A stretch of DNA of 64,000 bases from Verrucomicrobia bacterium SCGC AAA164-E04 (lineage in GTDB: Bacteria > Verrucomicrobiota > Verrucomicrobiia > Limisphaerales > AAA164-E04): NCBI GenBank assembly GCA_000383715.1, contig KB911862.1, forward strand, positions 27,132 to 91,131, written 5' to 3'. The position numbers were made by a program, and so were the translations under genes. Below the pieces are notes generated by a model that was not told the DNA's origin, searched no databases, and worked only from the letters and a program-made list of their open reading frames with translations. Numbering within the stretch: the stretch's first letter is position 1; every line of letters starts with the position of its first letter. Below are positions 3,454 through 33,045 of the stretch, piece by piece.

Positions 3454-4305
3454 TCAGGGGCGGTAACCGATATTTTTCCATTTCTCTTCGAATTGGGCCT
3501 GACGCCTGTGGGTGTAACCGTATTTCATGAACCAAATATCTTGCTTGTCTTGGTCTGTTTTGGCGGTTATCCCAAATTTGGAACTCCTTGGGTCTGCTTT
3601 GGATGCCTCCAGCATGCCCTCACCTTTCCATTTATGGCTGTCAGCATGCCCGTCGGCGTAACTCAAGGTGCTCATGTTGATATGCCACAGTGCAACCGCA
3701 TCCACCCATGTGAGTGCTTTTGGATCCGGGTTGATCAACCACGAACCAAGATTCCAGCCTCGATTGTCAGCTTCCTCCACAAAGACGTAGTTTCTGGATG
3801 GAAAGAGAATGGAATCCATTTTTGTGATGGAATTGGCTGTGTCCTCGCCATCCAGGCCACCAGCGCCACCGTAGCTGTCATAGGCAAATCCCTGACCTGG
3901 CTTAAGTTTGGTACGTCCGTCTCCCGGGCAATGCCAGGATCCTACGGCGGAAGCGTATGTAAAAAGTTTGCCCTGCCGCAATCCCTCGTGCACTTCGGCC
4001 AAAGCCTTTGCCTTGCCTTTCAGATTACTGCCTCTGGGAAGCGCCTTGGGGCCGGTCCAGAAATCACGACCATTACGGTAGGTGCTCATTCCCACCACTC
4101 GCTCTTCATTGTCACCGGCATACATGTAGAAAGCCAGTGCCAGTTGTTTCTGATTACCAAGGCAGGCAGCTCCTGTGGCCTTGGTTTTTGCCTTTCCAAG
4201 CGCTGGAAGCAGCATGCCAGCCAGTATGGCAATAATGGCGATGACAACCAGAAGTTCAATCAGGGTGAAACCTGATTTTTTTCGACAATGATATTGAAGG
4301 TTCAT
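3454..4305 (-). CDS. Prepilin-type N-terminal cleavage/methylation domain protein, DUF1559 / H-X9-DG family
   Basis: 283 aa. N-terminus is [28 protein letters not shown] (type IV pilin-like signal). C-terminal region has [13 protein letters not shown], which fits H-X9-DG. Confidence 0.85.
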
Positions 4306-19197: not shown

Positions 19198-19616
19198 AAT
19201 TCGTCTGGGGTTTCAGTAAAGAAAACGAAAACTCCTCTGCAACGGGGCCAAAAAAATAACTTTTCCTGATAAATTTGCCTCACAGGAAAAGGATTTTCCA
19301 AGCCATCAAAACATCGCTTGACCATTAAGGACTGCAGCCAATAAAGTTTTGATTGGTTTCCTGGAATGCGGATGTGAAGTAAAACTTTACTGTATCCTTA
19401 GTCGAGATTAGTCAGCTTGTAACAATCATCAACACGGCAAATAGCGACTCGGTTCACAATGCAGGGTGAATTGGGTGGGAGTGTTCAAGGTAGGATCATT
19501 GATCATGCGATAGGTCACATAATCATGCCTTCAACGAGGTGCGGAACAGCTTGTGTTTGCTTCTGTTCAGTAAATCTTTTCTTGTATTTCTTTTTCTCAC
19601 ACCTTCCTCTATTGAG

Positions 19617-19698
19617 TCAAAAATCAGTTTTTGATTGGGAATACCAGTCTTGCCTTAAAAAAAGATTGCACTAGTTTCCACTTTTTGAGTTACTCAAA
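19617..19698 (+). promoter_or_regulatory. Two dyad symmetries sharing TCAAA/TTTGA half-sites, upstream of the first gene of the His-rich locus (candidate operator)
   Basis: TCAAAAA-tcag-TTTTTGA at 19617-19634 (7-4-7). TTTGAGT-t-ACTCAAA at 19684-19698 (7-1-7, perfect) ends 8 nt before the ATG at 19707. Confidence 0.3.
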
Positions 19699-19706
19699 TT
19701 TCTGAC

Positions 19707-20075
19707 ATGATCATTTTGCGTCACATCATCACATTATTGATGACGGTAAGCATCCTCACTGCAGGATTTCTTTCCCGTGATGCGGAATTCCATGCCTTGC
19801 TGCATGCTGGTGAAGAATTCTGTGAAGTTAAAGCATCAGAATGCCACCAAAAAGGTCAACATGACCACCATCACGAAGGTGAGGGAGCGGAAGAACATCC
19901 TCATGGGCTCCTGACGCTGATGGCTGGAGCAGCTGTTGAAACCTCATTAGCCCCTCTGGTCTGCCCAGAACCGGTGCCTGCCCAATGGGCTTTTGTGACA
20001 TGGAAGCAAGAGCAAGGTGAAAGCTTTCGGAGCTGGAAAGCTTGCTTGGGACGAGCACCCCCAGCTCGATCCTAA
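19707..20075 (+). CDS. Small N-terminally anchored His-rich protein (hypothetical)
   Basis: 122 aa. N-terminal hydrophobic helix IITLLMTVSILTAGFL is followed by HALLHAGEEFCEVKASECHQKGQHDHHHEGEGAEEHPHG. I recognise no family. Coding status rests on its position and composition. Confidence 0.5.
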   Translation: MIILRHIITLLMTVSILTAGFLSRDAEFHALLHAGEEFCEVKASECHQKGQHDHHHEGEGAEEHPHGLLTLMAGAAVETSLAPLVCPEPVPAQWAFVTWKQEQGESFRSWKACLGRAPPARS

Positions 20076-20183
20076 CATCTCCCTGTTTCATACAAACCAA
20101 GGCGTTCCATCTTCCGTATCCTGTGCCAGTGCACGCAAAACGCTTTATGGAATGCTGCACTTAAAGTTTCCTTTCATAAAATT

Positions 20184-20936
20184 ATGTCAAAATCCTCTTG
20201 GCGCCCACATGTGGGTCCCAGGTTGAGCGATGCTGCAATCCGTGGGTTTACTCTCGTTGAATTACTCGTGGTCATTGCCATCATAGGCTTACTGGCGTCG
20301 ATGCTGTTTCCAGCACTCGGCAAGGCCTCGGCTAAAGCCAAGCAAGTTAAATGTGCCTCCAACATGAGGCAAATTGGTCTTGGTATCTTCATGTATACCG
20401 ATGACTTTGATGGTAAATTGCCGCAGACGGCCCACGAAACGCTGAGCACGAACAAAATCTGGATACGTCAACTGCTTCCTTACGTTGGGAATTCGGACGC
20501 GATCCGCCTTTGTCCGGCTGATCCAAATCGAACAGACCGTCGAGAAAGTGGGGGAACGAGCTATATTCTGAATGAGTTTATTTCGGTTCCGATCGTAGAC
20601 TCATTTGGGCAGACGCTTAAACCCATCCCCAAACTTGATCAACTCAGGCAGCCATCGGAAACCCTATTGCTTTTTGAGGTTGCTGATGATTATGGCCCAT
20701 CCATCTTTTCGGACCATACGCATTCACGCTCCTGGCTCAGAAGTGGATGGGAAGGTGTGGTCGCAGACATTCAAGTGGATCGGCATCGAACTGGAGCTCC
20801 CAACGTGGATCGCACCCAGGGAAAAGCCAATTATCTGTTTGTGGATGGACATGTCGAATCCGTTGATGCCTCTGTATTCAAACAGCAGTTTGATCAGGGT
20901 ATCAATGTTGCCCAGCCTCCAGAGTTCCGGCCTTGA
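20184..20936 (+). CDS. Prepilin-type N-terminal cleavage/methylation domain protein, DUF1559-like
   Basis: 250 aa. [26 protein letters not shown] at the N-terminus and NYLFVDGHVESV near the C-terminus. Confidence 0.85.
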   Translation: MSKSSWRPHVGPRLSDAAIRGFTLVELLVVIAIIGLLASMLFPALGKASAKAKQVKCASNMRQIGLGIFMYTDDFDGKLPQTAHETLSTNKIWIRQLLPYVGNSDAIRLCPADPNRTDRRESGGTSYILNEFISVPIVDSFGQTLKPIPKLDQLRQPSETLLLFEVADDYGPSIFSDHTHSRSWLRSGWEGVVADIQVDRHRTGAPNVDRTQGKANYLFVDGHVESVDASVFKQQFDQGINVAQPPEFRP

Positions 20937-21084
20937 TCGCCATCGGATACTGACTCCAAATAGCCCCAGAAGAATTCAATAGATTCGCTCAAGAGCAAGC
21001 TCATTGCTTACGACTGTACTCATATTCAAGGGGGGGGAAACTCTTACAATACTCACCAAAACAAAAATCAATTTACGAACAATA

Positions 21085-24000
21085 ATGAATCAACACTCAG
21101 TGAAAAACGTTATCATGCTGCTTTTTGGCCTGATTTCAATAACAGCATTGGCCGGTGAACGGCTAAAGTGGACTGATGGTCACGGAGACTTGTCAGTAGG
21201 ATATAACCAAGGAGATTGGGACTGGGGCATATGGGTCAATAGTCCTGTGGACGGAGTGATTGTAAGTCTCAACGAAAAAGCAAAGAATACAATCCCGGAC
21301 ATTACAGGTTTTGAATTTCTTGGGAATGTGGGTGATTCGATATGGATCGCTCCTCAAGTGGATCGAGAAGGTGTTATTTTCTTTGGCATGAATTCCTCTT
21401 CCACGCCTCAAGGAACATTCGAGAGAAATCGCTTTGATCTCTTGTTAACCAGTGTGGAAGGTCCCGGCGATTTTCTCACTTGGATCACAGGGGGCGCGGG
21501 ATCCGTCGAAGTGGGTATGAATTCTCGCGATGGCATCGATACTTCAGATCGTATCGACGTTCCTGCGCCGGGGCATTTCCACCAAAACTGGGGGTTTACC
21601 TCCCCTGGAACCTATCACGTGGGATTTACTGGAGAAGGAATACTTGCCGGTCAGTCAGCATTGGACGTGAGCGACGAACAGGTTTATCGATTTGCCGTCA
21701 ACGTCTTTGACCGAGGTGAACTGGACATGGAAGTTGCCTATGAAGATGGTGAATGGGAGTTGGTTTTACTTGATGAAGTCAATGAAAAAGAGATCGAGGC
21801 AGGAGATGCAGCCTTGCATGCGGGACCATCCACGTGGCAGGCGGTTCCGTCTGATCCGGCTTTTGGTTTCCTGGGAAATCCCGGTGATAGTATCTACATC
21901 CTCCCTCAGGACGAAAAAGAAGGTATCCTGTTTTTGGGGATAGCTGGTGATGAAATTGAATCAGGTGTGTTCGAAAATGATCAGGTTTCCCTGAATCTTT
22001 CAACAGTGGAAGGTCCGGGTTCTGTGTATCTGTATTCAACCGATGCATTCGGTACCCCAAGCAAATACTTCGACTCTGGCGACGGGATAAGCGCGGAGGA
22101 TCAGTTCCCTGTGAGTGTTGGGGGTCATTCCCATCAGAACTGGGCATTCTCATCTCCCGGGATCTATCGTGTTGGTTTGAATGCTTCTGGAGTTTTGGTC
22201 GATGGTACGTCAGCGAAGAGCGATGATACCGTCTTTCTCTTTGAAGTCTTTGGTCCCACTATTTTTGGGGCAGGTGAACTTGATCTTGAAGTTGCCTATG
22301 AAGATGGAGAATGGGAATTGATAGGCCTGGATGAGGTCAATGAGCGTGAAATCAACGCTGATGAACTTGTGATTCTGGGGTCATCGGCCACGCAGACAGT
22401 TGTGCCTGAAAATCCAGCCTTTGGTTTCCTTGGTGCTCCGGGTGAAGTCGTCCATGTGTTGCCACAGGAAGAGACCGAAGGAGTCATCTTTCTGGGTATT
22501 GCCGGTGATGAGATTGAGTCCGGTGTTTTTGTTGGAGACGCCGTGGAGTTGAAACTCGTTTCTTCGGAAGGTCCCGGTCATGTCTCGTTGTATGCTGTGG
22601 ACGCATTCGGAAGTCCAGAGGTCTTCTTCAATACAGCTGACGGGATCAGTGGCAGTGACGCGTTCCCGGTCAATGTTGGTGGGCATTCGCATCAGAACTG
22701 GGGCTTTACACAACCGGGTGTTTATCGGGTTGGCTTGCAGGCTTCTGGAGATCTGGCGGGCAACGCTGGTGGATCTCAAAGTGATGTAGCCATATTCACG
22801 TTCAACATTGAGGGGACAGGAACAACTACAGATACACCACGCGTGGTCTTTGACCGAGGTGAACTGGACATGGAAGTTGCTTACGAAGATGGTGTATTCG
22901 AGCTCGTGCTTCTTGATGAGGTCAACAATCTGGAAATTGAAGCTGCAGATGTCCTCCTCACAGGGACCGCCGCCACATTGGAACCCGTTCCCAACAGTAA
23001 GGCTTTTGGCTTCCTGGGGAATCCAGGCGAACGCATTTTCATTTTACCACAGGACGAGCAGGAGGGAGTCTTGTTCCTCGGCATTGCTGGAGATGAAATT
23101 CCGGCAGGCGAGTTCCGAAATGATTCGGTTGGATTGAATCTGGTTCAAATTACTGGCCCAGGTGATGTGTTCCTCTATGCCACGGATGCTTTTGGGACCC
23201 CAGAAGCCTTCTACAATTCGGCAGATGGCATTGATGAATCCGACGTTTTCCCTGTAAAAGTGGGGGGGCATTCTCATCAGAACTGGGGTTTTTCAGCGGC
23301 AGGAGAATATGAAGTGATTCTGCAGGCTTCAGGTGTCAAGGCTGGAAATGAAGAGTCCGTTGTGAGTGAGCCTGTTGCTTTCTTTTTTCATGTCATCGAG
23401 CCTGAAATTTTCCACTCGGGTGAGCTGGATATGGAAGTTGCCTATGAAGATGGTGCATGGGAGCTTGTTTTGCTGGATGAGGTCAATGAGCGTGAAGTGG
23501 CGCCTGATGAGTCCTTGCTTCAAGGCGGAGCTGCTGTGATGCAGTCAGTTCCGAACAACGCTGCCTTTAGTTTCCTTGGCTCCGTGGGAGATACCGCATG
23601 GGTCCTTCCACAGGAAGAGACCGAGGACGTTCTGTTCCTTGGCATCGCTGGCGATGAGATTGAAGCTGGCATCTTTGAAAATGATGCCGTGGATCTGCAA
23701 CTCAAAAGCGTGCGTGGTCCGGGTGATGTTTCCTTATATGCGGTCGATGCATTTGGAGCTCCCGTTGTCTATATGAATTCAGGTGACGGTATTGATGCCA
23801 ACGATGTTTTTCCGGTTAAAGTCGGAGGACATTCACACCAGAACTGGGGATTTACTGCTCCAGGGATATACAAAATTGCATTGCAGGCAGCAGGCACCCT
23901 CTTTGAAGGGAGTGAATTGATCGAAAGCCAGACAGTTGAATTCACTTTTGAACTTTTGGATGGTTCCTCGTCCATCAGCCTTGTTCGAAACCTGAATGAT

Positions 24001-24201
24001 AGCATCAAACTTCGCTGGGCGACATCGCTCGGAGCGAACTACCAGTTACAATCACGATCTGCTCTAAGCGGTGGAGAATGGGGTGATGTGGGAGAGGTGA
24101 TGTCAGGGACGGGAGAGGTCATGGAATTTGAAGTGCCTGTCATGGCAGATGTAGATTCCTTGTTTTATCGTTTGTGGATAGTGCCTTCAGCGACGCCATA
24201 A
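21085..24201 (+). CDS. Secreted protein of five tandem ~185-aa repeats with a (G/P)GH(S/F)HQNW(G/A)F motif, plus a C-terminal F(Y/F)R tail; resembles the ABC-transporter-associated surface repeat (TIGR03769 / choice-of-anchor M type, from memory)
   Basis: The ORF track opens at 21004. ATG 21085 gives the signal peptide MNQHSVKNVIMLLFGLISITALAG. Five repeats share the blocks GELDMEVAYEDG.WEL, AFGFLG.PG, EGV.FLGIAGDEI, EGPG and GGHSHQNWGF..PG.Y.VGL. The tail ends ...SLFYRLWIVPSATP. Confidence 0.85.
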   Translation: MNQHSVKNVIMLLFGLISITALAGERLKWTDGHGDLSVGYNQGDWDWGIWVNSPVDGVIVSLNEKAKNTIPDITGFEFLGNVGDSIWIAPQVDREGVIFFGMNSSSTPQGTFERNRFDLLLTSVEGPGDFLTWITGGAGSVEVGMNSRDGIDTSDRIDVPAPGHFHQNWGFTSPGTYHVGFTGEGILAGQSALDVSDEQVYRFAVNVFDRGELDMEVAYEDGEWELVLLDEVNEKEIEAGDAALHAGPSTWQAVPSDPAFGFLGNPGDSIYILPQDEKEGILFLGIAGDEIESGVFENDQVSLNLSTVEGPGSVYLYSTDAFGTPSKYFDSGDGISAEDQFPVSVGGHSHQNWAFSSPGIYRVGLNASGVLVDGTSAKSDDTVFLFEVFGPTIFGAGELDLEVAYEDGEWELIGLDEVNEREINADELVILGSSATQTVVPENPAFGFLGAPGEVVHVLPQEETEGVIFLGIAGDEIESGVFVGDAVELKLVSSEGPGHVSLYAVDAFGSPEVFFNTADGISGSDAFPVNVGGHSHQNWGFTQPGVYRVGLQASGDLAGNAGGSQSDVAIFTFNIEGTGTTTDTPRVVFDRGELDMEVAYEDGVFELVLLDEVNNLEIEAADVLLTGTAATLEPVPNSKAFGFLGNPGERIFILPQDEQEGVLFLGIAGDEIPAGEFRNDSVGLNLVQITGPGDVFLYATDAFGTPEAFYNSADGIDESDVFPVKVGGHSHQNWGFSAAGEYEVILQASGVKAGNEESVVSEPVAFFFHVIEPEIFHSGELDMEVAYEDGAWELVLLDEVNEREVAPDESLLQGGAAVMQSVPNNAAFSFLGSVGDTAWVLPQEETEDVLFLGIAGDEIEAGIFENDAVDLQLKSVRGPGDVSLYAVDAFGAPVVYMNSGDGIDANDVFPVKVGGHSHQNWGFTAPGIYKIALQAAGTLFEGSELIESQTVEFTFELLDGSSSISLVRNLNDSIKLRWATSLGANYQLQSRSALSGGEWGDVGEVMSGTGEVMEFEVPVMADVDSLFYRLWIVPSATP
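21163..23961 (+). repeat. Five in-frame tandem coding repeats (546-585 nt each)
   Basis: Unit boundaries read from the translation: R1 21163-21711, R2 21712-22269, R3 22270-22854, R4 22855-23415, R5 23416-23961. The unit starts are nearly identical at DNA level, for example gaactggacatggaagttgc in R2 and R4. Confidence 0.85.
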
Positions 24202-24490
24202 ACGCTTTTGTATTTGGGGAGCAGTGCCCGGCGTGAGACTACAATGGGCGCTGCCACCCCCCTTCTTAACATGTCAATGTTCAGTTGATTTTTACAATGC
24301 AATTTGAGTAATGAAGAATCGAAATAAACCACCTTTGGAATCCATTCAAATTCTTCGATTCACGCCTTTGCTTCAAGTTGTTCACAGCTGCGGAAGAGTG
24401 GCGGCTTGTCTGCCTGGTGGTGAAATAAACGAATTGTGATCGAGTTCTTGAGAAGCGAGTGACCCGAGCGATTCATGCTAAACAAAACAA

Positions 24491-24913
24491 ATGAAAAGTC
24501 ACATATTCATTAAACCCTGTATCACACAGGTTTCCTGCGACATGGATGCGAGCGCCCAAGTGGATTCAAATTTTTGTTCTATTACCAAGATAGTGAGTGA
24601 GTTCGGGTTAAAGCGAAAAATCTCACACGGTCGCCGACAATTCACCCAAGAAGAATACGAAAAGTTAAAACTGATTTGTAAGCTCGGCAGACTCAATGTG
24701 AGTGATACCAGCACATTACTCGGCGACAGCAGTATCAATCATCCTGATTGCGACACTTTTCAAAATAGCAGTGAATCTTCCGACGCTGAACTTAGCAGAC
24801 TGAAAAAACAAGAGCAGTTCTTAGATGAATTGTTGAATGAAATCATGAATTCGACAGCTGATGTGGATAACTATTTGATGAAAGCACTTTTATTATACGC
24901 AGGAAGGGAATGA
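24491..24913 (+). CDS. Hypothetical protein (orphan; weak MerR-like HTH resemblance)
   Basis: 140-aa ORF in a visibly AT-richer segment. ITKIVSEFGLKRKISHGRRQFTQEEYEKLKLICKL is loosely MerR-like. There is no other support. Confidence 0.35.
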   Translation: MKSHIFIKPCITQVSCDMDASAQVDSNFCSITKIVSEFGLKRKISHGRRQFTQEEYEKLKLICKLGRLNVSDTSTLLGDSSINHPDCDTFQNSSESSDAELSRLKKQEQFLDELLNEIMNSTADVDNYLMKALLLYAGRE

Positions 24914-25009
24914 TTTCCCGAATAAGTAGTCAATGGTCATCGTTCATGGCTGCACCAATAATTCATTTCCTTTTTCTAGAATATCAATCCTTAAGCAGAG
25001 ACAAATAAA

Positions 25010-26143
25010 ATGAGAATGAACAAGAGTTCTTACATGCTGGCTTTCCATACCTTATGCATTTGTGTATTCGGATGGGCTTTATGTGGATGCGGCCCCAATG
25101 GGCATAACGACAAAACCGGTAGTGGCCATGCGGCCGATCGGCATGCGGATAGTGAGCTTCCCTGCGTCATTGTTTCGACAACCGATTTGAAAGGCATCGT
25201 GGAAGCCATCAGTGGCGACAAAATTGAACTTCACAGCTTTGGTAAAGGGAACCAGGATCCCCATGACCTAGATATTCTTCCCAGTTATGTCCGTGAAATG
25301 AACGATGCGGATCTATGGGTTCAGGTAGGAAACGGCATTGAAGCAGCCTGGTATCCTAACTTGATCCGAAATGCTAATAATCCAGATATCATCGACGGAG
25401 CTGAAGGTTTCATGGACGTATCTCAAGGAGTGACTCCACTGGAAGGCATCGTTGGCGACATACTGGGCGCGGGGCACAACAGTGGTGTGCATGAGGCAGG
25501 TAACCCGCATTACCTGCTTGATCCTATCGAAGGGATACGGGTCGCCGAATTAGTGACACGGAGATTGTCCAAGATGCTTCCTGATCTGGCAGTCGAGTTT
25601 GCAGAGAATTTAGATAAGTTTCGTGACCCATTAGCCAAGGCCCTCATGGGTGAAGCTCTGGCTGAGCGGCATGATGTTGTCCAGATTGCTGATATGTACA
25701 TGGCAGGCACCCTGGACTCTTTTCTTGAACAGCAGGGGCATGGTTTGGCTTTGCAAGGCTGGTTAGGCGAGCTCAAGGAATACCGAGGCACAGTCATTGT
25801 TGGGGACCACGATCTCTGGCCTTATTTTTCCCGAAGGATTGGCCTGAGTGTTTTAGGGTATTTTGAGCCAGAACCAGGGATTCCTCCGACTACCAAACAT
25901 CTTCAAGCACTCATCGCCCAGATGAAGGCACAGTCAGTGCAGATCATTCTCTCCGCTCCTTACTTTGACAAACGACATGCAACATTTGTTTCCGAGAATA
26001 CTGGGGCTGTTGTTTTGCCCATGTGTCATCAAACTCAAGCGCGACCGGCTACTGAAACTTATTTCGATATGGTTCGACATAATATGGAAACCATCATCCA
26101 AGGGCTGAAACAAACGCAATCACCAGCTCCAGCCGCACAATAA
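25010..26143 (+). CDS. ZnuA/TroA-type (cluster A-I) metal ABC substrate-binding lipoprotein
   Basis: 377 aa. Lipobox-like GWALCGC is followed by the His/Asp-rich GHNDKTGSGHAADRHAD. Metal-site blocks NQDPHDLD, GNPHYLLDP and GDHDLWPYF (His at the third ligand position, as in Zn/TroA-type proteins), plus SAPYFDKRH. Confidence 0.85.
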   Translation: MRMNKSSYMLAFHTLCICVFGWALCGCGPNGHNDKTGSGHAADRHADSELPCVIVSTTDLKGIVEAISGDKIELHSFGKGNQDPHDLDILPSYVREMNDADLWVQVGNGIEAAWYPNLIRNANNPDIIDGAEGFMDVSQGVTPLEGIVGDILGAGHNSGVHEAGNPHYLLDPIEGIRVAELVTRRLSKMLPDLAVEFAENLDKFRDPLAKALMGEALAERHDVVQIADMYMAGTLDSFLEQQGHGLALQGWLGELKEYRGTVIVGDHDLWPYFSRRIGLSVLGYFEPEPGIPPTTKHLQALIAQMKAQSVQIILSAPYFDKRHATFVSENTGAVVLPMCHQTQARPATETYFDMVRHNMETIIQGLKQTQSPAPAAQ

Positions 26144-26148
26144 ACCGT

Positions 26149-27021
26149 ATGAAAGAGGATATGCGAAAACAGCTGGGTCTTGATGAAAGGTCCGTTGGTA
26201 TTCCAGTAAAAAAAATGGTTCCCCCTTCAGAAGGGACAAGCGTACAACAGAAAAGTGACCCCATTGTCCTCGTAGAAAATGGCGGGTTCGCCTATGGCCG
26301 GAACTCGATCCTGGAGTCGGTGGAAATGAAGATCAAGGATGGTGAATTCTGGTGTTTTATTGGGCCCAACGGGGAAGGGAAAACAACTTTCATCAAGGCT
26401 TTGTTGGGCGCACTCAGACCAAAACGTGGTTTGATACGCTTGCGTGCAGATTTCGCAAGAAGGACCCGTATAGGTTTTGTACCTCAAAGTTGTGACTTGA
26501 ACCCTAGTGTTCCGACCACGATCGAATCTTTTGTGAAACAAGGCACGGCAGGTTTGAACGTCGAGCGAACAAAATTAAACCATCGAGTGCGGCGAGCGCT
26601 TGAAGTGATGGGAATCCAGTTCATTCGTGAACGAAGCATCTGGCGTGTTTCCGGAGGGCAACGACAGCGAGCCATGGTCGCACGGGCGCTGGTCAGAGAC
26701 CCCCTGATGATGATTGTCGATGAGCCTACTGCTGGATTGGATCTTGCTGCCTCTTCGGGGCTTTTGAAAACCATCACGGAGCTCAATCAAAAGCACAAGA
26801 TTACGGTTATTTTTGTGACGCATGATTTACAGCTGGCAGGAAGGTATGCGTCTCATGTCGCCATCTTTAAAAACAAGCGTGTAATCAATGGCCCGATTGG
26901 TGAAATATTGACCGGTAAGAATTTAGAAAAAGCTTTTGGTGTCCCCACTGAGGTCAAGCAAACATCTTCGGGTGAATATACAGTGCGCTCAAAAGTTGAA
27001 TTTCAGGAGGCCTCCGTATGA
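26149..27021 (+). CDS. Metal ABC transporter ATP-binding protein (ZnuC/TroB-like)
   Basis: 290 aa. Walker A GPNGEGKTT, signature VSGGQRQR, Walker B MMIVDEPTAGLD. The start lies 5 nt after the binding-protein stop. Confidence 0.85.
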   Translation: MKEDMRKQLGLDERSVGIPVKKMVPPSEGTSVQQKSDPIVLVENGGFAYGRNSILESVEMKIKDGEFWCFIGPNGEGKTTFIKALLGALRPKRGLIRLRADFARRTRIGFVPQSCDLNPSVPTTIESFVKQGTAGLNVERTKLNHRVRRALEVMGIQFIRERSIWRVSGGQRQRAMVARALVRDPLMMIVDEPTAGLDLAASSGLLKTITELNQKHKITVIFVTHDLQLAGRYASHVAIFKNKRVINGPIGEILTGKNLEKAFGVPTEVKQTSSGEYTVRSKVEFQEASV

Positions 27022-27851
27022 TAGCTGAATTTATTGAGTCATGGCCTCTTTTTTACCGTACTTATCTGAGTGCCATCATGATTGGCCTTTCTCTCTCCCT
27101 TCTGGGTGTTGTGGTTGTCGCTCGTGGGAATGTTTTCGTGGCTGCAGCCATCTCTCAGGCTTCCTTGCTTGGAGTGGCGCTGAGTATGTTCTTTCGTCTG
27201 GGGCAACCTGTGTTAGCGGCCGTTTTATGCTCTGTGGGTGCTTCTCTGCTGGTTGCACGGAAACATTCGGCCGGGGGGAGTTCAAGCAGTGAGGAATTGA
27301 CCGGATGGCTGTTTCTCATCAGTGGGAGTCTGTCCGTGTTGCTACTTGCCAAAATGCCATTTGGATTAAAGGAAATACAGTCTCTTTTTTCTTCCAGTAT
27401 TATCGGAGCAAATTCGCTCGATATCGGAGTATTTGCCTCACTGCTGGTGATTTTTATCTTATTTCTGCTCACACGCATGCGCCGGCTCACATTGTTTCTC
27501 TCTGATCCTGTCATGGCTGCCGCTGTCGGTGCCAACATCATGATATGGTCGGTGACCCTTTCAATTTCTTTGGGATTGGCGACTGGCTTGGCCATTCGCT
27601 CTTCGGGGATGCTCTTTACTTTTGGGTGCTTGATTCTTCCGGCTCAAATGGCAAAGCACATATGCCGTGACATCTCACCGATGTTCATGGCGGCTCCCAT
27701 CATGGCCATCGTTAGCATTCTCTCTGGATTGGTGCTTGGAAATTATTTTGATCTTCCTCCGGCTCAAACCATCATTGCCTTGATGTCATTCATGTTGCTC
27801 CTGACATGGTCCTATCGTTGGACAAGAGATTCCTTTTTTGTCACTTCATAG
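27018..27851 (+). CDS. Metal ABC transporter permease (ABC-3 family, ZnuB/TroC-like)
   Basis: 277 aa with about 8 hydrophobic helices. The start overlaps the ATPase stop (ATGA at 27018-27021). Confidence 0.85.
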   Translation: MIAEFIESWPLFYRTYLSAIMIGLSLSLLGVVVVARGNVFVAAAISQASLLGVALSMFFRLGQPVLAAVLCSVGASLLVARKHSAGGSSSSEELTGWLFLISGSLSVLLLAKMPFGLKEIQSLFSSSIIGANSLDIGVFASLLVIFILFLLTRMRRLTLFLSDPVMAAAVGANIMIWSVTLSISLGLATGLAIRSSGMLFTFGCLILPAQMAKHICRDISPMFMAAPIMAIVSILSGLVLGNYFDLPPAQTIIALMSFMLLLTWSYRWTRDSFFVTS

Positions 27852-27873
27852 AAAATAGGGTTCTTTCAAAACT

Positions 27874-30441
27874 GTGACTATGCTGAGTCAACGAAAACAA
27901 TTTCAGATAGCGTGTATCCTCGTCGTACTCAGCGGGGCTGCCTCACTATCACATCAATTGCTCTGGACCAACCGGATGACGGATCTTCTGGGTGCCAGTG
28001 CGGCCTCGGTTGCGCGCGTTTTTGGTTGTTTTTTTCTTGGCCTCTCTGTCGGAGCGGGACTGATGGGATGGAAAATATCCAGTGTGAAGCATCCCTGGCG
28101 TTGGCTCGCGTGTGCAGAATTTGCAGTTGCACTGATGTGCTTGCCCATTTTGTGGCTGTCCTATTGGACTGATTGGATCTGGCCATGGTTGGGGCTGGAC
28201 GGATTGCTGGGCTGGCAAGGCGCCTGGATTAAATGGATATTGTCCATGGGTGTTGTGTTTTTTCCTGCAATGGCCATGGGGACGACATTGCCGATTGTCA
28301 TCAAAGGGGTACGTTCGGCATCCGCTTTGAAAGGTCACTTTAGCGTCTGGCTTTATGCTTTGAATACTTTGGGCGGACTATTGGGGCTGGGAATTACCGG
28401 TTGTCTGACCTTGTATGCGTTCGGTATCAGCGGAGCCATGATGCTGGCCATCGGTACGAATATCTGTGTTGGCATGATTGCCCTTTGGGTGGATAGAAAA
28501 TCAAAAATCATTGATCATCATATTCGACGTGATCTGGTTCCTGATGGTGGTGTGCTGACAACGTTAGGTCAAATTGGCTGGAAAGCATCAAGCACTGCTT
28601 TTGCTTCGGGATTCCTGATACTTGCACTCGAGATTCTGGCCATGGATCTTGTGATGCTGATCGCGCCTTTGTCTTTTCATGCACCACTGGCTGTTTTGGG
28701 TGCGTTTATATTCACATTGGCGCTTTCTGCCTCTTGCATTCCTCTTCTTGGAACTAAATGGCGTCGCAGCAGTCAATGGATCATGCTACTGCTGGCTGCT
28801 GCTGGTATTTTAGCTGCCGCGGGACCCTACTGGTTTGTCCAGTCGGCTATGAACACTGAGGGAGTTCTGCCGGCCGATAGTCTTATTGGTTTTACGCGTT
28901 CGCTCGTGTTTACAGTTTTATTATCATTTGGACCGTGCATTCTGTTGGGTGGATTCATTTTTCCAAGCCTTCTGGGGATGATCCCTGATAAATGCGAAAA
29001 GAGTAATGCTGTTGGATTTCTTTTGGCTTTCAATGGTTTGGGAGGGCTTTTGGGAGCAGAATTTACCTATGGTTTATTGATGCCAATGCTGGGTGTATAC
29101 CTTGGGATAGGGGGTGTTGCTGTGATATATGTGCTGATGGCTTTTCTCTGGGTGCAGTGGAATTCAAAGAGAAAGCCTGTTTTCGCAAACCTTGCTGTTT
29201 TTGGCGCTCTGCTGATCACGGCAGCATCCTTTTTTTGGTTAAGACAATTGCCGGTCGTGAATCCGAACATGGGACTCAAAATCCTTGAGTTAGATTCTGG
29301 ACGTGAGGGCAACCTGGCTGTTGTTGAGCATGAAAATTTTGGACGTGGATTACTTTTTTCCAATCAGTATCTGCTCGGCAGTACCAACGTTCGCTATGAT
29401 CAGGAGCGCCAAGCTCATATCCCATTGATGCTTCATGGAGAACCCAAGCATGTCTGCTTTGTAGGGTTGGCCACTGGTATCACTCCTTCCGCAGCATTAC
29501 AGCATTCAATGGTCGAAAAAATTGACGTGGTGGAGCTATCCTCGATGGTCACCCGTGCTGCAGGTACTCATTTTACAGATTTTAACGCTCATATCATTCA
29601 AGATCCTCGCGCCCATATCTACGTGGAAGATGGTCGCACTTTTATTGCGTCTCAGCGCGATCAATATGATGTGATTGTCAGTGATCTGTTTCTGCCCTGG
29701 CGCCCTGGTGTAGGCCGACTCTACAGCGCCGAGCACTTTCAATCGACGCGGAACGCCTTGCGCTCAGGGGGGCTTTACTGTCATTGGTTGCCCCTTTATC
29801 AGTTTACCAAAGAGCAGCTGGATTTGGTCTTGAGAACCTTCCAGAGCGTTTACCCCAAGGTATATTTATTTGAGGGAAAGCTGCAACTGGACGCCCCTGT
29901 CCTTGGTCTGGTTGGGTTCAAGAGCGGAGATCTTAAATGGGAAGAGCTTCAGGATGCCTGTCGCCGTGAGCGTCTGGCCGGCAATATCAAAGATCCGACA
30001 GTGAGATGGTTGCAGGGACTCGCGATGTTGTTTCGTGGAACGATCGATTCCGATGTTCAGTACGAGAACATCAATACGCTTGATAACATGCAACTTGAGC
30101 TTCAGGCCGGGCTTGACCGAATGATCGATCCTGAAGGGAGCAAATATCTGACAGGTATCAGCTGGTTGTCCCTTGCTCAAAATTATCTTCAAAAGAATGC
30201 TCGGAGGGGTTACCCAAACACTATTCAGGATTATCCCTTGAAAGGCATGAAAATAAGTGTGCTGACCGAAAGAATCAAACAAGGTGGCGAAACAAAAAAC
30301 TCAAGCCTTCGAGAAATTTTTTCCCAAATGCCTGAGGCCATGCTTAAAGACCAATACTCTGACTGGAAGCGTTGGGCTGGTGCTGAGATAAGTGTGAGAT
30401 GGAAACCCAAAAGTGATAAACTGAATGCACCACAGTTATGA
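27874..30441 (+). CDS. Fused polytopic membrane (MFS-like) / spermidine-synthase-like protein
   Basis: 855 aa. About 12 TM helices lie in the first ~470 aa (SGAASLSHQLLWTNRMTDLLGAS...). An aminopropyltransferase-like fold follows: VCFVGLATGITPSAAL (nucleotide-binding loop), VVELS and DVIVSDLFLPWRPGVGRLYSAEHF. A further ~250-aa C-terminal extension is of unknown type. GTG start at 27874, or ATG at 27880. Confidence 0.8.
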   Translation: MTMLSQRKQFQIACILVVLSGAASLSHQLLWTNRMTDLLGASAASVARVFGCFFLGLSVGAGLMGWKISSVKHPWRWLACAEFAVALMCLPILWLSYWTDWIWPWLGLDGLLGWQGAWIKWILSMGVVFFPAMAMGTTLPIVIKGVRSASALKGHFSVWLYALNTLGGLLGLGITGCLTLYAFGISGAMMLAIGTNICVGMIALWVDRKSKIIDHHIRRDLVPDGGVLTTLGQIGWKASSTAFASGFLILALEILAMDLVMLIAPLSFHAPLAVLGAFIFTLALSASCIPLLGTKWRRSSQWIMLLLAAAGILAAAGPYWFVQSAMNTEGVLPADSLIGFTRSLVFTVLLSFGPCILLGGFIFPSLLGMIPDKCEKSNAVGFLLAFNGLGGLLGAEFTYGLLMPMLGVYLGIGGVAVIYVLMAFLWVQWNSKRKPVFANLAVFGALLITAASFFWLRQLPVVNPNMGLKILELDSGREGNLAVVEHENFGRGLLFSNQYLLGSTNVRYDQERQAHIPLMLHGEPKHVCFVGLATGITPSAALQHSMVEKIDVVELSSMVTRAAGTHFTDFNAHIIQDPRAHIYVEDGRTFIASQRDQYDVIVSDLFLPWRPGVGRLYSAEHFQSTRNALRSGGLYCHWLPLYQFTKEQLDLVLRTFQSVYPKVYLFEGKLQLDAPVLGLVGFKSGDLKWEELQDACRRERLAGNIKDPTVRWLQGLAMLFRGTIDSDVQYENINTLDNMQLELQAGLDRMIDPEGSKYLTGISWLSLAQNYLQKNARRGYPNTIQDYPLKGMKISVLTERIKQGGETKNSSLREIFSQMPEAMLKDQYSDWKRWAGAEISVRWKPKSDKLNAPQL

Positions 30442-30469
30442 TGTCAGCTAACGTTTAATGATTTAGACA

Positions 30470-31453
30470 ATGATGAATAAAGAATATTTATCGACCATCT
30501 TTGAGCACGACCATTCGTTTGGCCAGGATAAGAAGAAGCCCGGCGAGTTGAAGACCATTCTTGTGATCGTGATCACCTTTACAATGATGATCGTGGAAAT
30601 AACAGCGGGTCTGGCTTTTGGATCCATGGCGCTGCTCGCCGATGGTTTGCACATGGCTTCTCATGCAGCTGCACTTGGTGTTTCAGCCATCGCATACGTA
30701 TTTGCACGAAAGTACGCACACGATCCGACCTACAGTTTTGGTACCGGAAAAGTCAATGTGCTGGGAGGTTTTACGGGAGCCGTTCTCTTATTGGTTTTTG
30801 CCCTGATCATGGTGAGTGAAAGTATCCATCGATTGGTCTCACCTGTGGAGATTGTTTTCAATCAGGCAATCACAGTAGCAGTGATTGGACTCATCGTGAA
30901 TGGTTTATCGATGCTCATCCTCGGTCATGACGATCACCACCACCATTCTCACGATCATGAAGACGATCACCACCACCATTCTCACGATCACAACCTGAAA
31001 GCAGCCTATCTCCATGTACTGGCGGATACGCTTACATCCTTACTTGCGATTTTTGCCTTACTGGCTGCCAAATATTTTGGATGGGTCCGAATGGATCCGC
31101 TGATGGGAGTCGTAGGGGCAATCGTTATTTCCAAATGGTCCTTCGGTTTGTTATCGCAAACCGGTTCCTCCCTCCTGGATCGGCAAGCTTCAGCTCGGAC
31201 CAAGGAGGGGATCATTGGCAGGATTGAGGGTGCGCAATCTGAGACTTATGTCTTTGACCTGCATGTATGGTCTATCGGTCCAGGGATCTTTGCAGCCTCT
31301 TTCATTGTGGTTTCAGATCAACTAAAAGCACCTCATTTTTATAAAGATCTCCTCAAGGATATGGGGCAAATCGTGCACATAACCGTCGAAACACATCTGC
31401 TTGATCCGGAGGAATTGTATGATCACTCAATAAGGACTCAAGCCCAGGCATAG
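30470..31453 (+). CDS. Cation diffusion facilitator (CzcD/ZitB-like) divalent-metal efflux transporter with a His-rich loop
   Basis: 327 aa. CDF blocks LADGLHMASHAAALG and YLHVLADTLTSL, six TM helices, and the loop GHDDHHHHSHDHEDDHHHHSHDHN. Confidence 0.9.
   Translation: MMNKEYLSTIFEHDHSFGQDKKKPGELKTILVIVITFTMMIVEITAGLAFGSMALLADGLHMASHAAALGVSAIAYVFARKYAHDPTYSFGTGKVNVLGGFTGAVLLLVFALIMVSESIHRLVSPVEIVFNQAITVAVIGLIVNGLSMLILGHDDHHHHSHDHEDDHHHHSHDHNLKAAYLHVLADTLTSLLAIFALLAAKYFGWVRMDPLMGVVGAIVISKWSFGLLSQTGSSLLDRQASARTKEGIIGRIEGAQSETYVFDLHVWSIGPGIFAASFIVVSDQLKAPHFYKDLLKDMGQIVHITVETHLLDPEELYDHSIRTQAQA
30931..30990 (+). repeat. In-frame 33-nt tandem duplication inside the CDF His-rich loop
   Basis: cgatcaccaccaccattctcacgatca occurs at 30931-30957 and again at 30964-30990 (27/27 identical, period 33 nt). 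It encodes DDHHHHSHDH twice. Confidence 0.9.
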
Positions 31454-31576
31454 GTTAGTCTTGGAGCTCTCTTTTTAGCGGTAACTTAATCATTTTTGTA
31501 TTACCTTCACTTGAGGTAATTCGGCCCATGTTCGCATGTTAGGCTTTAAATGACCTTTTATTCCGTCCGTCAAAAA

Positions 31577-32124
31577 CTAATGATTTTTATCTGAATTGAT
31601 CGACACGTGCTTGTCTTGATCAGGTGCTTGCTTTGTCCATTGGCCATCGGGTCTGAATACGCCAGAGGCTGCTGAACATGGTAATGCATGGGGAACGGAT
31701 AGTCGGCACCAATAACCCATAATCAGCCGACTGCGGCCCGCGCCCTCATGTTCATACACTAGCAAGCCCAATGGACTTCTTCTTCCGCTCGGCGCCCTCC
31801 ATTGATGGGGATAAAAATGATCTGTGCACCTTTTTCTGCAAGTTACCGACTCAAGTGGAGATCAGGCATCGGGGTATATTGCTGATTCCCCCATATTTCG
31901 TTACAGGTGGGTCCACTCACTCGAATCCCCTTGATTTCAAAGGTGCTAAGAAGGGGGATTGCATAGTCGTTGATTTCTCTTTGAAGGGTTTGGGGAAACT
32001 CCCGCCAAATAAGGGCTCTGAGTGTAAATCCTGAAACTTGCCTGATGAATCGTAAAAGCCAATCTGGTTTTAGTGCTTTTGATCGTCCGATTCGGTGTGA
32101 CAGGTAACTAAGGTAAGGGCGATA
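31577..32124 (-). pseudogene. Decayed carbon-nitrogen hydrolase (nitrilase-superfamily) gene
   Basis: One minus-strand frame reads ...FEIKGIRVSGPTCNEIWGNQ...SR*LAEKGAQIIFIPINGG...VHWAC*CMNMRARAAVG*LWVIGAD. In-frame stops are TAA (31843-31845), TAG (31759-31761) and TGA (31723-31725). The last block (SAASGVFRPDGQWTKQAPDQDKHVSINSD) is in a different frame. The N-terminal part is missing. Confidence 0.5.
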
Positions 32125-32229
32125 TTAGATCGATTGGCTTGCTCGACAATGTTTGCCAATGCGCTGCTAACTTTTGTCTGATCGGATTTAGGAACTTGAT
32201 CCCTGCCTTTTAATGTTCAAGATGAACAC

Positions 32230-33045
32230 ATGTTACCCGCTGAATTGCATAAGCGACTGCACTCAAATGGGACAGTCTTTGGTTCTTTGATCGTTTCTCC
32301 CTCACCGCGCTGGCCAGATGTTGTTAAAACCTGTGGCCTTGATTTTGTATTCATCGACACAGAACATATTGCGCTGGATCGAGAAAAATTGAGTTGGATG
32401 TGCCAGACATACATGTCGCTGGGGCTGCCTCCTTTGGTGCGCATTCCATCACCAGATCCCGATGTCGCTACCACGGTGTTGGATGGTGGTGCTGCTGGAG
32501 TGATCGCTCCCTATGTTGAATCTGTCGCTCAGGTCAATGCCTTGCGTGGCGCCGTCAAGCTTCGACCCATCAAGGGTGAAAAACTCAAGGGAATACTGGC
32601 AGGTGAAGCTGTTGAACCAATATTGGAGGATTATATCAACAAAAGGGCAGCGGATTGTTTGTTCATTGTGAATATCGAAAGTGTTCCGGGGATCAATGCA
32701 CTTGATGATATACTGGCCATTCCCGATTTGGATGGCGTGCTGATTGGGCCGCATGACCTTTCCTGCAATCTCGGTATCCCAGAGCAATACGATCATCCAG
32801 ACTTCTTGGAAGCCTGCAAAACAATTTTCCATAAAGCCCGTGAAGCTAACGTCGGAGCAGGTATTCACTTCTGGGGGAATGTGTCTCAACAGGTCCGGTT
32901 TCTCGAAATGGGGGCGAACTTCCTTATTCACAGTGCTGACATACTGCTCTTTCAAAAGCATTTGTCCGCGGACCTGAGTGCCATTCGCAAAACCGCAGGA
33001 ATCAAAGTCGACACACTTGATGAAGGTAAGGTGGATTCCATATAA
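32230..33045 (+). CDS. HpcH/HpaI-family aldolase (2-keto-3-deoxy-acid aldolase type)
   Basis: 271 aa. GLDFVFIDTEHIALD, VRIPSPD, APYVESVAQV and LIGPHDLSCNLG are typical of the HpcH/HpaI aldolase/citrate-lyase fold. Confidence 0.85.
   Translation: MLPAELHKRLHSNGTVFGSLIVSPSPRWPDVVKTCGLDFVFIDTEHIALDREKLSWMCQTYMSLGLPPLVRIPSPDPDVATTVLDGGAAGVIAPYVESVAQVNALRGAVKLRPIKGEKLKGILAGEAVEPILEDYINKRAADCLFIVNIESVPGINALDDILAIPDLDGVLIGPHDLSCNLGIPEQYDHPDFLEACKTIFHKAREANVGAGIHFWGNVSQQVRFLEMGANFLIHSADILLFQKHLSADLSAIRKTAGIKVDTLDEGKVDSI

Follow-up and report, generated by a model that had tools for sequence, protein, structure and literature searches.

The stretch analysed here, called the window in the following, comprises 64,000 nucleotides (nt) of contig KB911862.1 of Verrucomicrobia bacterium SCGC AAA164-E04, and all positions follow the numbering of this window. 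Between 19707 and 31453 its + strand carries nine convincing genes plus one doubtful open reading frame (ORF), as judged from the ORF list and family searches. Our reading, to which we give a probability of roughly 55%, is that of a locus for the scavenging and uptake of a metal, most probably zinc, under metal limitation, organised in two modules and headed by a leader ORF under nascent-peptide control. A sequence-only reading of the same DNA had described nine or ten same-strand genes forming a histidine-saturated block for metal capture and uptake. The nine genes and a doubtful tenth at 24491-24913 were found with the coordinates it gave, and every motif that it quoted could be located at its position in the sequence; its observation of the locus is confirmed with a caveat on the enrichment of His, and its interpretation is partly supported. 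The caveat is that three of the nine proteins are rich in His, namely the small ORF (8.2%), the ZnuA-type protein (4.2%) and the CDF transporter (7.7%; CDF, cation diffusion facilitator), and that the remaining six are not, with 0.7-2.4% in the pilin-like protein, ATPase, permease and SpeE fusion, below the window background of 3.0%. What we propose as the first module (19707-24201) would combine the leader ORF with two proteins, one pilin-like with DUF1559 and one secreted with five choice-of-anchor M domains, and the features there, with lengths in amino acids (aa), are:

19659..19700 (+): putative promoter, A-tract plus TTGCAC (-35-like); AAAAAG(A/G)TTGC kept in relatives, by eye
19707..20075 (+): leader ORF, 122 aa, DUF2946/CruR/CutF-like; His/Cys-rich middle, GRAPP three residues before the stop
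20076..20183 (+): intergenic spacer, 108 nt, candidate attenuator or Rho-loading region; C>G stretch and conserved hairpin
20184..20936 (+): specialised DUF1559 pilin-like protein, 250 aa; prepilin N-terminus G/FTLVELL, DUF1559, HX9DG
21085..24201 (+): secreted choice-of-anchor M (TIGR03769) repeat protein, 1038 aa, no Cys; signal peptide, five domains, C-terminal domain
21160-21702 (+): repeat domain R1 (R1 to R5 are about 185 aa each)
21703-22260 (+): repeat domain R2
22261-22845 (+): repeat domain R3
22846-23406 (+): repeat domain R4
23407-23970 (+): repeat domain R5
23971-24198 (+): C-terminal domain of about 70 aa in the repeat protein; no Pfam or NCBIfam match

A genome scan returned 51 loci (designated by L numbers), which were searched with the window proteins and with markers from the related locus L003. 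The closest come from marine and estuarine Verrucomicrobiota metagenome-assembled genomes (MAGs) with 92-98% identity (L007, L008). In almost every locus of the Planctomycetota-Verrucomicrobiota-Chlamydiota (PVC) group with upstream sequence, the repeat gene is directly preceded by the DUF1559 gene, and this pairing includes Sedimentisphaerales (L035), Methylacidiphilales (L051, L054) and Akkermansia (L053). The leader ORF is the first in the gene string in all loci, and the conserved PVC core consists of three genes, the leader ORF ending in RAPP, the DUF1559 pilin-like gene and the choice-of-anchor M gene. In Akkermansia muciniphila the pilin-like and repeat genes are present and the leader ORF was not found. 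It is this PVC-specific three-gene module that is new, the pairing of choice-of-anchor M with an ABC transporter and the DUF2946 arrest-peptide leader both being of known kinds.

The assignment of the repeat protein to the choice-of-anchor M family, which the sequence-only reading had offered for checking with hidden Markov models (HMMs), held. NF038134 (choice_anch_M) scores 566.2 bits against a cut-off of 55 and TIGR03769 185.2 against 30.9, each over five stretches and the former far above chance, and TIGR03773 reaches 414.1 against 190.3 by five local stretches to profile positions ~259-435, with no end-to-end match. The motif (G/P)GH(S/F)HQNW(G/A)F is seen in all five repeats, as PGHFHQNWGF and GGHSHQNWAF once each and as GGHSHQNWGF three times. 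The core H.H.NW.F..PG.Y is common to all of them, and R1 starts with GHGD and R2-R5 with GELD. Both GH.D/GE.D and H.H.NW are shared by the PVC and actinobacterial domains (L034-L049), and the substitutions observed are ligand-like, with His replaced by Glu at the first site (domains 2-5) and by Asp at the second His of HxH (distant homologues). About 100 homologue clusters were found, nearly all verrucomicrobial, with one to nine domains. In the literature found, the TIGR03769/choice-of-anchor M domain is given no biochemical function.

The AlphaFold2 models are confident and all-beta, with a pLDDT of 90 for residues 1-587 (three domains) and of 97.9 for R2. A PDB sequence search with the repeat protein gave zero matches at E <= 1, and Foldseek with the three-domain model against the PDB returned generic Ig-like and cupredoxin-like arrays (PAD N-terminal domains, AgI/II, Fet3p) with TM <= 0.17. 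YcnI, SO1698 and PAD were considered as structural homologues of the single domain and set aside, the Foldseek matches to them not being significant. Nothing finer than a beta-sandwich is justified for the fold of the repeat domain.

The tail of the repeat protein had been described as non-LPXTG, and indeed it has neither an LP.TG nor a PEP-CTERM motif. Instead the protein finishes in the domain of about 70 aa (...FYRLWIVPSATP), which shows the pattern W..G..YQLQS...W...G.G...FYRL and is present in 92 of the ~100 homologues; no Pfam or NCBIfam match connects it to a known sorting signal. The family name, choice of anchor, already anticipates a tail other than LPXTG. The Akkermansia muciniphila MAG (L053, 347-1144) encodes a 265-aa choice-of-anchor M protein with a single domain and a PEP-CTERM tail (IPEPSSSTLLLIGLVGWVATRKR), which is the behaviour behind the family name; the gene directly follows a DUF1559-like gene, and the pair represents the module in its smallest form in a gut species that can be cultivated. 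Upstream of the locus, the GDSL-lipase/CBM9 protein at 16687-19197 (-) ends in ...LQWGGSASLQTATSVNGPWKEV...FYRLR and resembles the same C-terminal domain by eye; the HMM of this domain was silent on that C-terminus at E <= 1.

In Actinobacteria the choice-of-anchor M domain occurs inside a metal-binding protein. The Patulibacter ORF of L036 scores 755.7 bits with TIGR03772 and contains an embedded NF038134 choice_anch_M domain (91 against 55). The insertion point lies between the N-lobe and the GEIDPHLW segment which carries the second ligand His, and the inserted domain seems to be circularly permuted, its H.H..W half preceding its GH.D half (L036, L039, L044). The His-rich loop of enterobacterial ZnuA lies in that same region. 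Because the domain is fused to the binding protein in one phylum and encoded adjacent to it in another, these sequences indicate that the choice-of-anchor M domain most likely works with a metal-binding protein. The anchored-repeat cluster of Corynebacterium diphtheriae is repressed by zinc and Zur (PMC6711530), and the Gardnerella genes for the repeat protein and the transporter are induced together, by 60-120-fold (PMC11979175).

The gene following the small ORF had been called DUF1559 pseudopilin-like, in agreement with matches above the cut-offs for TIGR02532 (29.5 against 16.3), PF07963 (N_methyl, 28.8 against 21.2), PF07596 (DUF1559, 34.4 against 23.3) and TIGR04294 (HX9DG, 21 against 19). 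The protein lies below the cut-offs for pseudopilins of the type II secretion system (T2SS), the GspG equivalog giving 36.3 against 88.85 with the N-terminal helix alone aligned. In Planctomycetota and Verrucomicrobiota the DUF1559 pilin-like family is rich in paralogues. The orthologues tied to the repeat gene share the motifs TAHE, RLCP, (S/A)DHTHSR and DRHR out to Planctomycetota; DHTHS is kept as far as Sedimentisphaerales and has the form DHIHG in Methylacidiphilales. The window has two further DUF1559-type genes (58569-59333 and 3454-4305), and both lack the TAHE, RLCP, DHTHS and DRHR motifs. As judged from these motifs, the linked pilin-like protein is a dedicated orthologous subfamily of DUF1559, and its conserved histidines suggest that it binds metal too. 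The linkage of the repeat gene to it, also claimed beforehand, is kept across the PVC genomes of the scan.

A second DUF1559/N_methyl gene at 58569-59333 (+) is followed by the ORFs 59408-60445 and 60567-62555, which have no family, and the latter ends in the ~70-aa C-terminal domain of the repeat protein (HMM E 2.7e-6). PVC bacteria may generally pair a pilin-like gene with a cargo bearing this domain to achieve export or retention.

The sequence-only reading took the first ORF for a small anchored protein; its conservation and the hhalign and DUF2946 scores of its relatives fit better with a putative leader ORF of the DUF2946/CruR/CutF type with a C-terminal RAPP. The 122-aa ORF contains HDHHHEGEGAEEHPH and ends in GRAPPARS before the stop. 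It has a hydrophobic N-terminal export or transmembrane segment (residues 7-22) and a sensor-like region with FHxxxH, C39, C46, HHHEGE and EHPH, and it gave no significant match in direct Pfam/NCBIfam-type family searches. Its 12 close homologues are nearly all exactly 122 aa long, with F28, H29, L32, H33, C39, C46, H54-H56, E57, E59, E63, H64, P65 and H66 invariant. G115-R116-A117-P118-P119 is likewise invariant, RAPP being kept in 12/12, and dN/dS against relatives is 0.12-0.16, i.e. the ORF is under purifying selection. Upstream of the pilin-like gene an ORF ending in RAPP is found in 21 of 26 loci, compared with a background of 0.39% among all ORFs of at least 40 aa, and within the 64-kb window the leader ORF is the sole one with such an R(A/G/S)PP ending. 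The ORFs at the same position in other loci are divergent in sequence and have in common an N-terminal hydrophobic segment, HxxxH and the R(A/G/S)PP ending, located 2-6 residues ahead of the stop; apart from it the C-terminal half varies freely across loci.

The leader ORFs of the window's clade (L008-L011) and of its sister clade (L003, L017, L019, L022) are homologous (hhalign probability 97.5%, E 7e-12, 120 columns). Against Pfam DUF2946 (PF11162, gathering cut-off 23.7 bits) the syntenic orthologues score 23.8 (L022), 23.1 (L019), 19.7 (L017) and 16.6 bits (L003), and the first three matches span the whole profile. The link to DUF2946 rests on these sister-clade orthologues, since a profile of the leader family searched against 1.8 billion proteins met only 4 matches with no classical DUF2946 protein among them. 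The ORF lacks a CXXC or CxxxC copper motif ~45 residues before RAPP and has HxxxH, C39, C46, HHHEGE and EHPH instead; H66 and C86 lie 50 and 30 residues from R116, and the sister-clade ORFs have PFC ~47 residues ahead of RAPP.

Bordetella CruR (bp2923) is a DUF2946 protein which requires its RAPP, a motif that causes ribosome arrest (PMC9426467, PMC10951233, PMC12992588). Copper sensed via CXXC relieves the arrest and leads to Rho-dependent termination before the TonB receptor gene (PMC9426467), and in Rhodobacter CutF copper lengthens the stalling and unmasks the cutO start site (bioRxiv 10.1101/2022.11.11.516240, 10.1101/2025.02.05.636593). CutF-like proteins with motifs made up of His alone exist as well (bioRxiv 10.1101/2022.11.11.516240), which is in favour of a His-rich leader of this type. 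Bacterial proteomes avoid RAPP and RGPP, both of which arrest ribosomes robustly (PMC10951233, PMC12992588). Neither bioRxiv 10.1101/2022.11.11.516240 nor PMC12992588 mentions zinc or a pilin-like downstream gene, and Verrucomicrobiota figure in these arrest-motif surveys solely through a phylum-wide motif frequency. Conservation and synteny make a regulatory leader peptide the most likely identity of the small protein. It could instead be a stable, membrane-anchored His-rich protein, such as a periplasmic metallochaperone or a partner of the pilin, in which RAPP plays no part in stalling. We think this improbable: purifying selection along the whole ORF and not at the C-terminus alone, a score of the window ORF under the Pfam DUF2946 threshold and reporter tests in which the proline motif of CutF did not by itself act as a strong arrest signal (bioRxiv 10.1101/2022.11.11.516240) speak for it, but R(A/G/S)PP stays close to the stop in most loci in spite of the free divergence of the C-terminal half, and a first position in the operon followed by a ~100-220-nt spacer is a hallmark of CruR-type leaders (PMC9426467).

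The element AAAAAG(A/G)TTGC is found by eye ~35-45 nt ahead of the ATG in the window and in L008, L009 and L011, and L010 holds a looser form (AAATGAGTTGCAG). The spacer between the leader and pilin-like genes has a median of 108 nt across loci (range ~100-220 nt). In the window it has a C/G ratio of 2.4 at 20060-20139 and a hairpin at 20101-20156, which lies in a fold of -28 kcal/mol (z -2.2) and whose arms, by eye, are conserved in L008, L009 and L011, any changes being to G-U pairs or compensatory. A dependence of the spacer on Rho is not claimed, as the C>G bias fails to generalise across loci, and for the same reason no choice is made between the CruR and CutF mechanisms. A scan of 19000-32300 with Rfam at E <= 1 gave zero matches, hence no NiCo or other riboswitch, and a generic promoter and terminator scan gave counts equal to the shuffled background.

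The gap behind the repeat gene and what would be the second module after it have these features:

24216..24260 (+): hairpin, possible terminator or attenuator between two transcription units; minimum free energy -30.6 kcal/mol, z -2.3, weak U-tail
24491..24913 (+): doubtful 140-aa ORF; no family match
25010..26143 (+): ZnuA/TroA-family (cluster A-I) metal-binding lipoprotein, 377 aa; PF01297 141.8 against 29 bits
26149..27021 (+): ABC transporter ATPase (ZnuC/MntA/AztA-like), 290 aa; PF00005
27018..27851 (+): ABC-3 permease (ZnuB/AztB-like), 277 aa; PF00950 94.7 bits; start overlaps the ATPase stop (ATGA)
27874..30441 (+): fused polytopic-membrane protein like MFS (major facilitator superfamily) and SpeE, 855 aa; NF037959 72.6 against 40; PF01564
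30470..31453 (+): CDF efflux transporter, DmeF type, 327 aa; HHHHSHDH twice in a loop; PF01545

The tight packing reported for the transporter genes is seen in the ORF coordinates: three gaps measure 5, 22 and 28 nt, and one pair of genes overlaps by ATGA. The ZnuA/TroA-type lipoprotein has an LCGC lipobox, and it shows the His-rich N-terminal GHNDKTGSGHAADRHAD tail and the His-rich ligand site that had been ascribed to it. Aligned to PsaA (His67, His139, Glu205, Asp280) and MntA, its ligand positions read His, His, His, Asp, the ligand set of TroA and AztC. Every metal-specific equivalog stays below its cut-off (AztC, the best, 75.3 against 350; ZnuA 51.1 against 268), so the metal specificity is unreadable from family membership; the ATPase gives 140 bits with MntA and 134 with AztA, all below equivalog cut-offs. 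The comparison with the dedicated anchored-repeat transporter models fails as well, with 33.2 against 350.45 for TIGR03772, 121.1 against 268.8 for TIGR03771 and 54.4 against 296.8 for TIGR03770. The window ZnuA matches positions 381-484 of the TIGR03772 profile only and has no inserted choice-of-anchor M domain. Because the scores lie far below these models and all metal-specific equivalogs, the transporter is classed from its sequence as a generic cluster A-I importer of the ZnuABC/TroA type and not as the dedicated anchored-repeat type.

The attachment of this transporter to the core trio is partial. The claimed linkage of the whole locus stands for the pilin-like/repeat pair, whereas ZnuABC, MFS/SpeE and CDF are attached in ~7/18 of the PVC lineages with enough downstream sequence. 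ZnuABC genes come after the repeat gene in the window and L008, in L010, L003, L017, L019 and L022 and in Luteolibacter (L038). The MFS/SpeE gene follows ZnuB in L003, L017 and L019 and not in L010, and a CDF gene stands behind the transporter genes in L003, L010, L017 and L019. In Luteolibacter, represented by a MAG, ZnuABC and COG0523 accompany the repeat gene, and Roseibacillus ishigakijimensis (KCTC 12986, L040) has the repeat gene only. The two modules might then be independent, the core trio serving the surface, adhesion or the envelope and the ZnuABC-SpeE-CDF genes being an ordinary operon that lies downstream by chance. Such an explanation would fit with the trio standing without a transporter in most lineages (L004/L012, L005, L011, L014, L015, L024, L027, L035), with the hairpin and gap between the modules, with the failure of the ABC genes in the dedicated models and with the adhesin-type Ig-like arrays, such as AgI/II, among the multi-domain Foldseek matches. 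We nevertheless consider it unlikely, since several species-level genomes from two clades share the juxtaposition, Luteolibacter (L038) has it independently, and Actinobacteria show it again, there even with the domain built into the binding protein. Moreover, COG0523 genes adjoin the repeat gene in L032, L038 and L042, and the Zur-like box of L003-type loci, described below, stands upstream of the trio and not of the transporter.

The ORF at 24491-24913 is doubtful because it is only 61% identical in a relative (L008) whose flanking genes are 84-96% identical. Its segment GRRQFTQEEYEKLKLICKL resembles by eye a MerR-type wing and the start of a dimerisation region. In the sister clade (L003, L017, L019, L022) a MerC-family gene occupies this position, and a tblastn search of the 24202-25009 gap gave no MerC remnant.

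The fused membrane/SpeE-like protein and the CDF with two copies of HHHHSHDH, said to complete the block, are both present. The fusion does not reach the spermidine synthase equivalogs (TIGR00417 76 against 249.55, PRK00811 105.5 against 260). Compared with solved SpeE structures, GGGDG is replaced by GLATG, with loss of the aminopropyl-binding Asp, and D(S/C)xD/E by DLFLPW, so that the putrescine site lacks its second acidic residue. Because GxATG and GDLFLPW(G/R)xG replace the catalytic motifs here and are conserved throughout the orthologous group, a normal spermidine synthase or aminopropyltransferase is unlikely, and the replacements suggest a substrate other than decarboxylated S-adenosylmethionine (dcSAM) and putrescine for the MFS/SpeE group. 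Synthesis of a nicotianamine-type metallophore was considered in view of the loss of the dcSAM-specific Asp and not adopted, no supporting evidence being found, and a role as general partner of ZnuABC was rejected, as orthologues in a Myxococcales MAG and in an unclassified metagenome contig do not stand beside ZnuABC. In the former (L058, 10816-17378) the orthologue lies near YtkA, DUF2271, DUF3570, DUF4266 and MbnB/HvfC-type genes, a neighbourhood that looks related to heavy-metal or copper peptides. The CDF aligns with residues 12-309 to profile positions 1-309 of 309 of NF033827 (DmeF).

With respect to the metal, the most informative genes are those of the sister clade. In L003, L017, L019 and L022 genes for a Fur-family regulator, HisI (142.8 against 126) and a COG0523 GTPase (CxCC) are divergent from the operon, a combination described for Zur regulons by Haas et al. 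(PMC2770081). All NCBIfam equivalogs for the subtype of this regulator stay below their cut-offs. The palindrome TGCAAAnnnTTTGCA, with at most one mismatch, occurs 20 times in 421 kb of loci compared with 0.66 expected; 15 of these copies are found upstream of the pilin-like gene at no more than 800 nt, and others stand ahead of HisI/COG0523 genes. It is carried by L003 (8622-8669), L017, L019, L022, L005, L027, L020, L025, L033 and L021, often in two copies ~30 nt apart and between the divergent Fur-family gene and the operon. It resembles the Streptomyces coelicolor Zur box TGAAAATGATTTTCA quoted in PMC2823685 and is a candidate for a verrucomicrobial Zur box. The clade of the window has neither the palindrome nor the neighbouring regulator, and the local palindromes in the intergenic regions of the window are not conserved in L009-L011. 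Since the Zur-like box, Fur-family gene and COG0523 gene are absent there, any statement on regulation in the window rests on orthology with the sister clade. Zinc, proposed with a question mark in the sequence-only reading, is the best-supported metal from this neighbourhood, the palindrome, the His3Asp site and the Zur-repressed actinobacterial system.

The metal might also be copper or nickel/cobalt, with the leader acting as a copper sensor like CruR or CutF, the repeat domains binding Cu like YcnI or CopC, and the DmeF-type protein indicating Co/Ni. In favour of these metals one may count that CutF-like clusters with His-only motifs exist beside the Ni/Co-linked HupE/UreJ (bioRxiv 10.1101/2022.11.11.516240), that the weak structural matches include the Cu-binding YcnI and the cupredoxin domains of PmoB/AmoB, and that the sister clade has a MerC-family gene; the copper-responsive DUF2946 members and the DmeF score are given below. 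In our judgement they are nonetheless doubtful candidates. Zinc is indicated by the Zur-like box, by the neighbouring genes for the Fur-family regulator, COG0523 and HisI and by the His3Asp site of the ZnuABC-type importer, and in Actinobacteria the corresponding system is under the control of Zur (PMC6711530, PMC2823685). The similarity to YcnI falls short of significance (E ~0.008-0.02; TM 0.22-0.24 when normalised by the query and 0.30-0.32 by the target), and the domain has no N-terminal His-brace, nor does the protein, with zero Cys, have Cys/Met-rich Cu(I) motifs.

The sequences show the family memberships and domain architecture, the linkage of the genes, the conservation of the motifs and the purifying selection on the leader ORF. 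The metal and its binding by the repeat and pilin-like proteins, their location, the arrest and the co-regulation of the modules in this genome are what we infer in the following account. In each beta-sandwich domain (H/E)-x-D on the first strand and H-x-H-x-N-W on a later strand would form one metal site, making the repeat protein an extracytoplasmic metal scavenger with several sites. The pilin-like partner would anchor, display or relay metal to the repeat protein by means of its pilin-type N-terminal helix. A ribosome would stall at the RAPP of the leader, metal on the nascent chain would alter the length of the stall, and this length would set the transcription or translation of the downstream genes via the 108-nt spacer, as in CruR and CutF. 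The second module (25010-31453), a ZnuABC/TroA-type importer with the His3Asp lipoprotein, would then move the metal across the inner membrane, and it is tempting to speculate that the DmeF-type CDF removes mis-imported Co/Ni under zinc limitation or, equally speculatively, returns metal to the periplasm. The more specific idea of a zinc-sensing, or at least non-copper, nascent arrest peptide which gates a pilin-anchored, multi-site scavenger built from DUF1559 and choice-of-anchor M proteins is a tentative one.

Several observations weigh against the proposed zinc locus. The two modules are linked in a minority of lineages, as described above, and an 808-nt gap together with the hairpin at 24216-24260 divides the first three genes from the transporter genes, on account of which the block may comprise two transcription units. 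His makes up only 1.7% of the repeat protein, below the 3.0% average of the window, and Foldseek with its single domain gave no match at E <= 0.001 (best E 0.005, TM <= 0.37). The window ORF itself scores 12.9 bits with DUF2946 (E 0.2, profile positions 17-117), below the gathering cut-off, and the characterised members CruR, CutF and CopL are all copper-responsive (PMC9426467, bioRxiv 10.1101/2022.11.11.516240). The rut-like C>G bias is clear in the window yet modest overall and not general across loci. No copy of TGCAAAnnnTTTGCA within two mismatches was found in 19198-19706 or 24202-25009 and no Fur-family or COG0523 gene in the window. Finally, the CDF scores as a Co/Ni exporter (380.3 against the DmeF cut-off of 250), and an exporter is odd within an uptake operon.

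The remainder of the window codes for sulfatases, esterases, CotH, DUF1501/PSD1 and a hybrid histidine kinase, and no metal regulator and no secretion machinery was found among the proteins encoded outside the locus. Two large DUF7133-HEAT-cytochrome c proteins are encoded at 7493-10447 and 53061-57596 (+), one of which adds Laminin_G_3 and DMFA2_C, and two CotH-domain proteins at 4550-6301 and 39956-42163. These are typical PVC genes of unknown function and unrelated to the locus.

The TIGR03769 domain is tied to metal ABC transporters and Zur regulons in Actinobacteria, among them Corynebacterium, Cutibacterium and Gardnerella, and the PVC loci tie the DUF1559 and choice-of-anchor M families together in a three-gene module led by RAPP. 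They supply candidate ligand residues, a candidate operator and cultured species that carry the repeat gene. Should the leader prove to respond to zinc, nascent-peptide metal sensing would extend beyond copper, the only metal so far shown. The tentative idea of an arrest peptide that gates a pilin-anchored scavenger, if true, would give the PVC-expanded DUF1559 pilin-like family its first function. It would also provide the first biochemical role for the TIGR03769 domain, as a free-standing equivalent of the insert in the actinobacterial binding protein. Scavenging of trace metals bears on how polysaccharide-degrading marine Verrucomicrobia cope with low-zinc seawater.

The locus can be compared with several known systems. 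The window leader resembles CruR, CutF and CopL in its small size and first place in the operon, in an N-terminal signal for export, in a metal-ligand motif ~45-50 residues ahead of RAPP, in the distance of three residues between RAPP and the stop and in the long spacer that comes after it. Its putative sensor is His-rich with two Cys (HxxxH...C...C...HHHEGE...HPH), whereas theirs is CXXC or CxxxC, and the downstream genes are pilin-like and choice-of-anchor M genes instead of a TonB receptor, a multicopper oxidase or an RND (resistance-nodulation-division) pump; the host belongs to Verrucomicrobiota, and the likely metal is zinc. The pilin-like protein shares G/FTLVELL, with Glu at +5, and the DUF1559 and HX9DG matches with T2SS pseudopilins, type IV pilins and other DUF1559 proteins, but its subfamily adds the His motifs TAHE, DHTHS and DRHR, and in the window genes for a secretion or pilus machinery were not found near it.

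With ZnuABC and its accessory ZinT, and with AztABCD, the locus has in common a cluster A-I protein with a His3(Asp) site and a His-rich extension, an ATPase, an ABC-3 permease and a nearby gene for an extracytoplasmic accessory protein, as well as COG0523 and Zur-type genes close by in relatives. Where those systems have ZinT or the AztD propeller, the locus encodes a five-domain choice-of-anchor M protein; it further includes a CDF and a SpeE-like membrane protein, and the ZnuA and AztC equivalog scores are far under the cut-offs. The CDF and the fusion both score above the NCBIfam cut-offs of their families, DmeF and NF037959, and differ from them in their unusual place behind a metal importer.

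The closest parallel is the anchored-repeat system of Actinobacteria (C. diphtheriae troA-dip0445, CmrA), which has the same NF038134/TIGR03769 domain with GH.D and H.H.NW and a repeat gene linked to a cluster A-I metal ABC importer, under a Zur-type control that has been shown in Corynebacterium (PMC6711530, PMC2823685) and is suggested here by the sister-clade neighbours. The window protein differs from it in having, instead of an LPXTG/sortase anchor, the 70-aa C-terminal domain of no known family, and the ABC genes are generic, with a binding protein that carries no inserted choice-of-anchor M domain. To this common scheme the PVC loci add, in a diderm host, the pilin-like partner and the leader ORF ending in RAPP.

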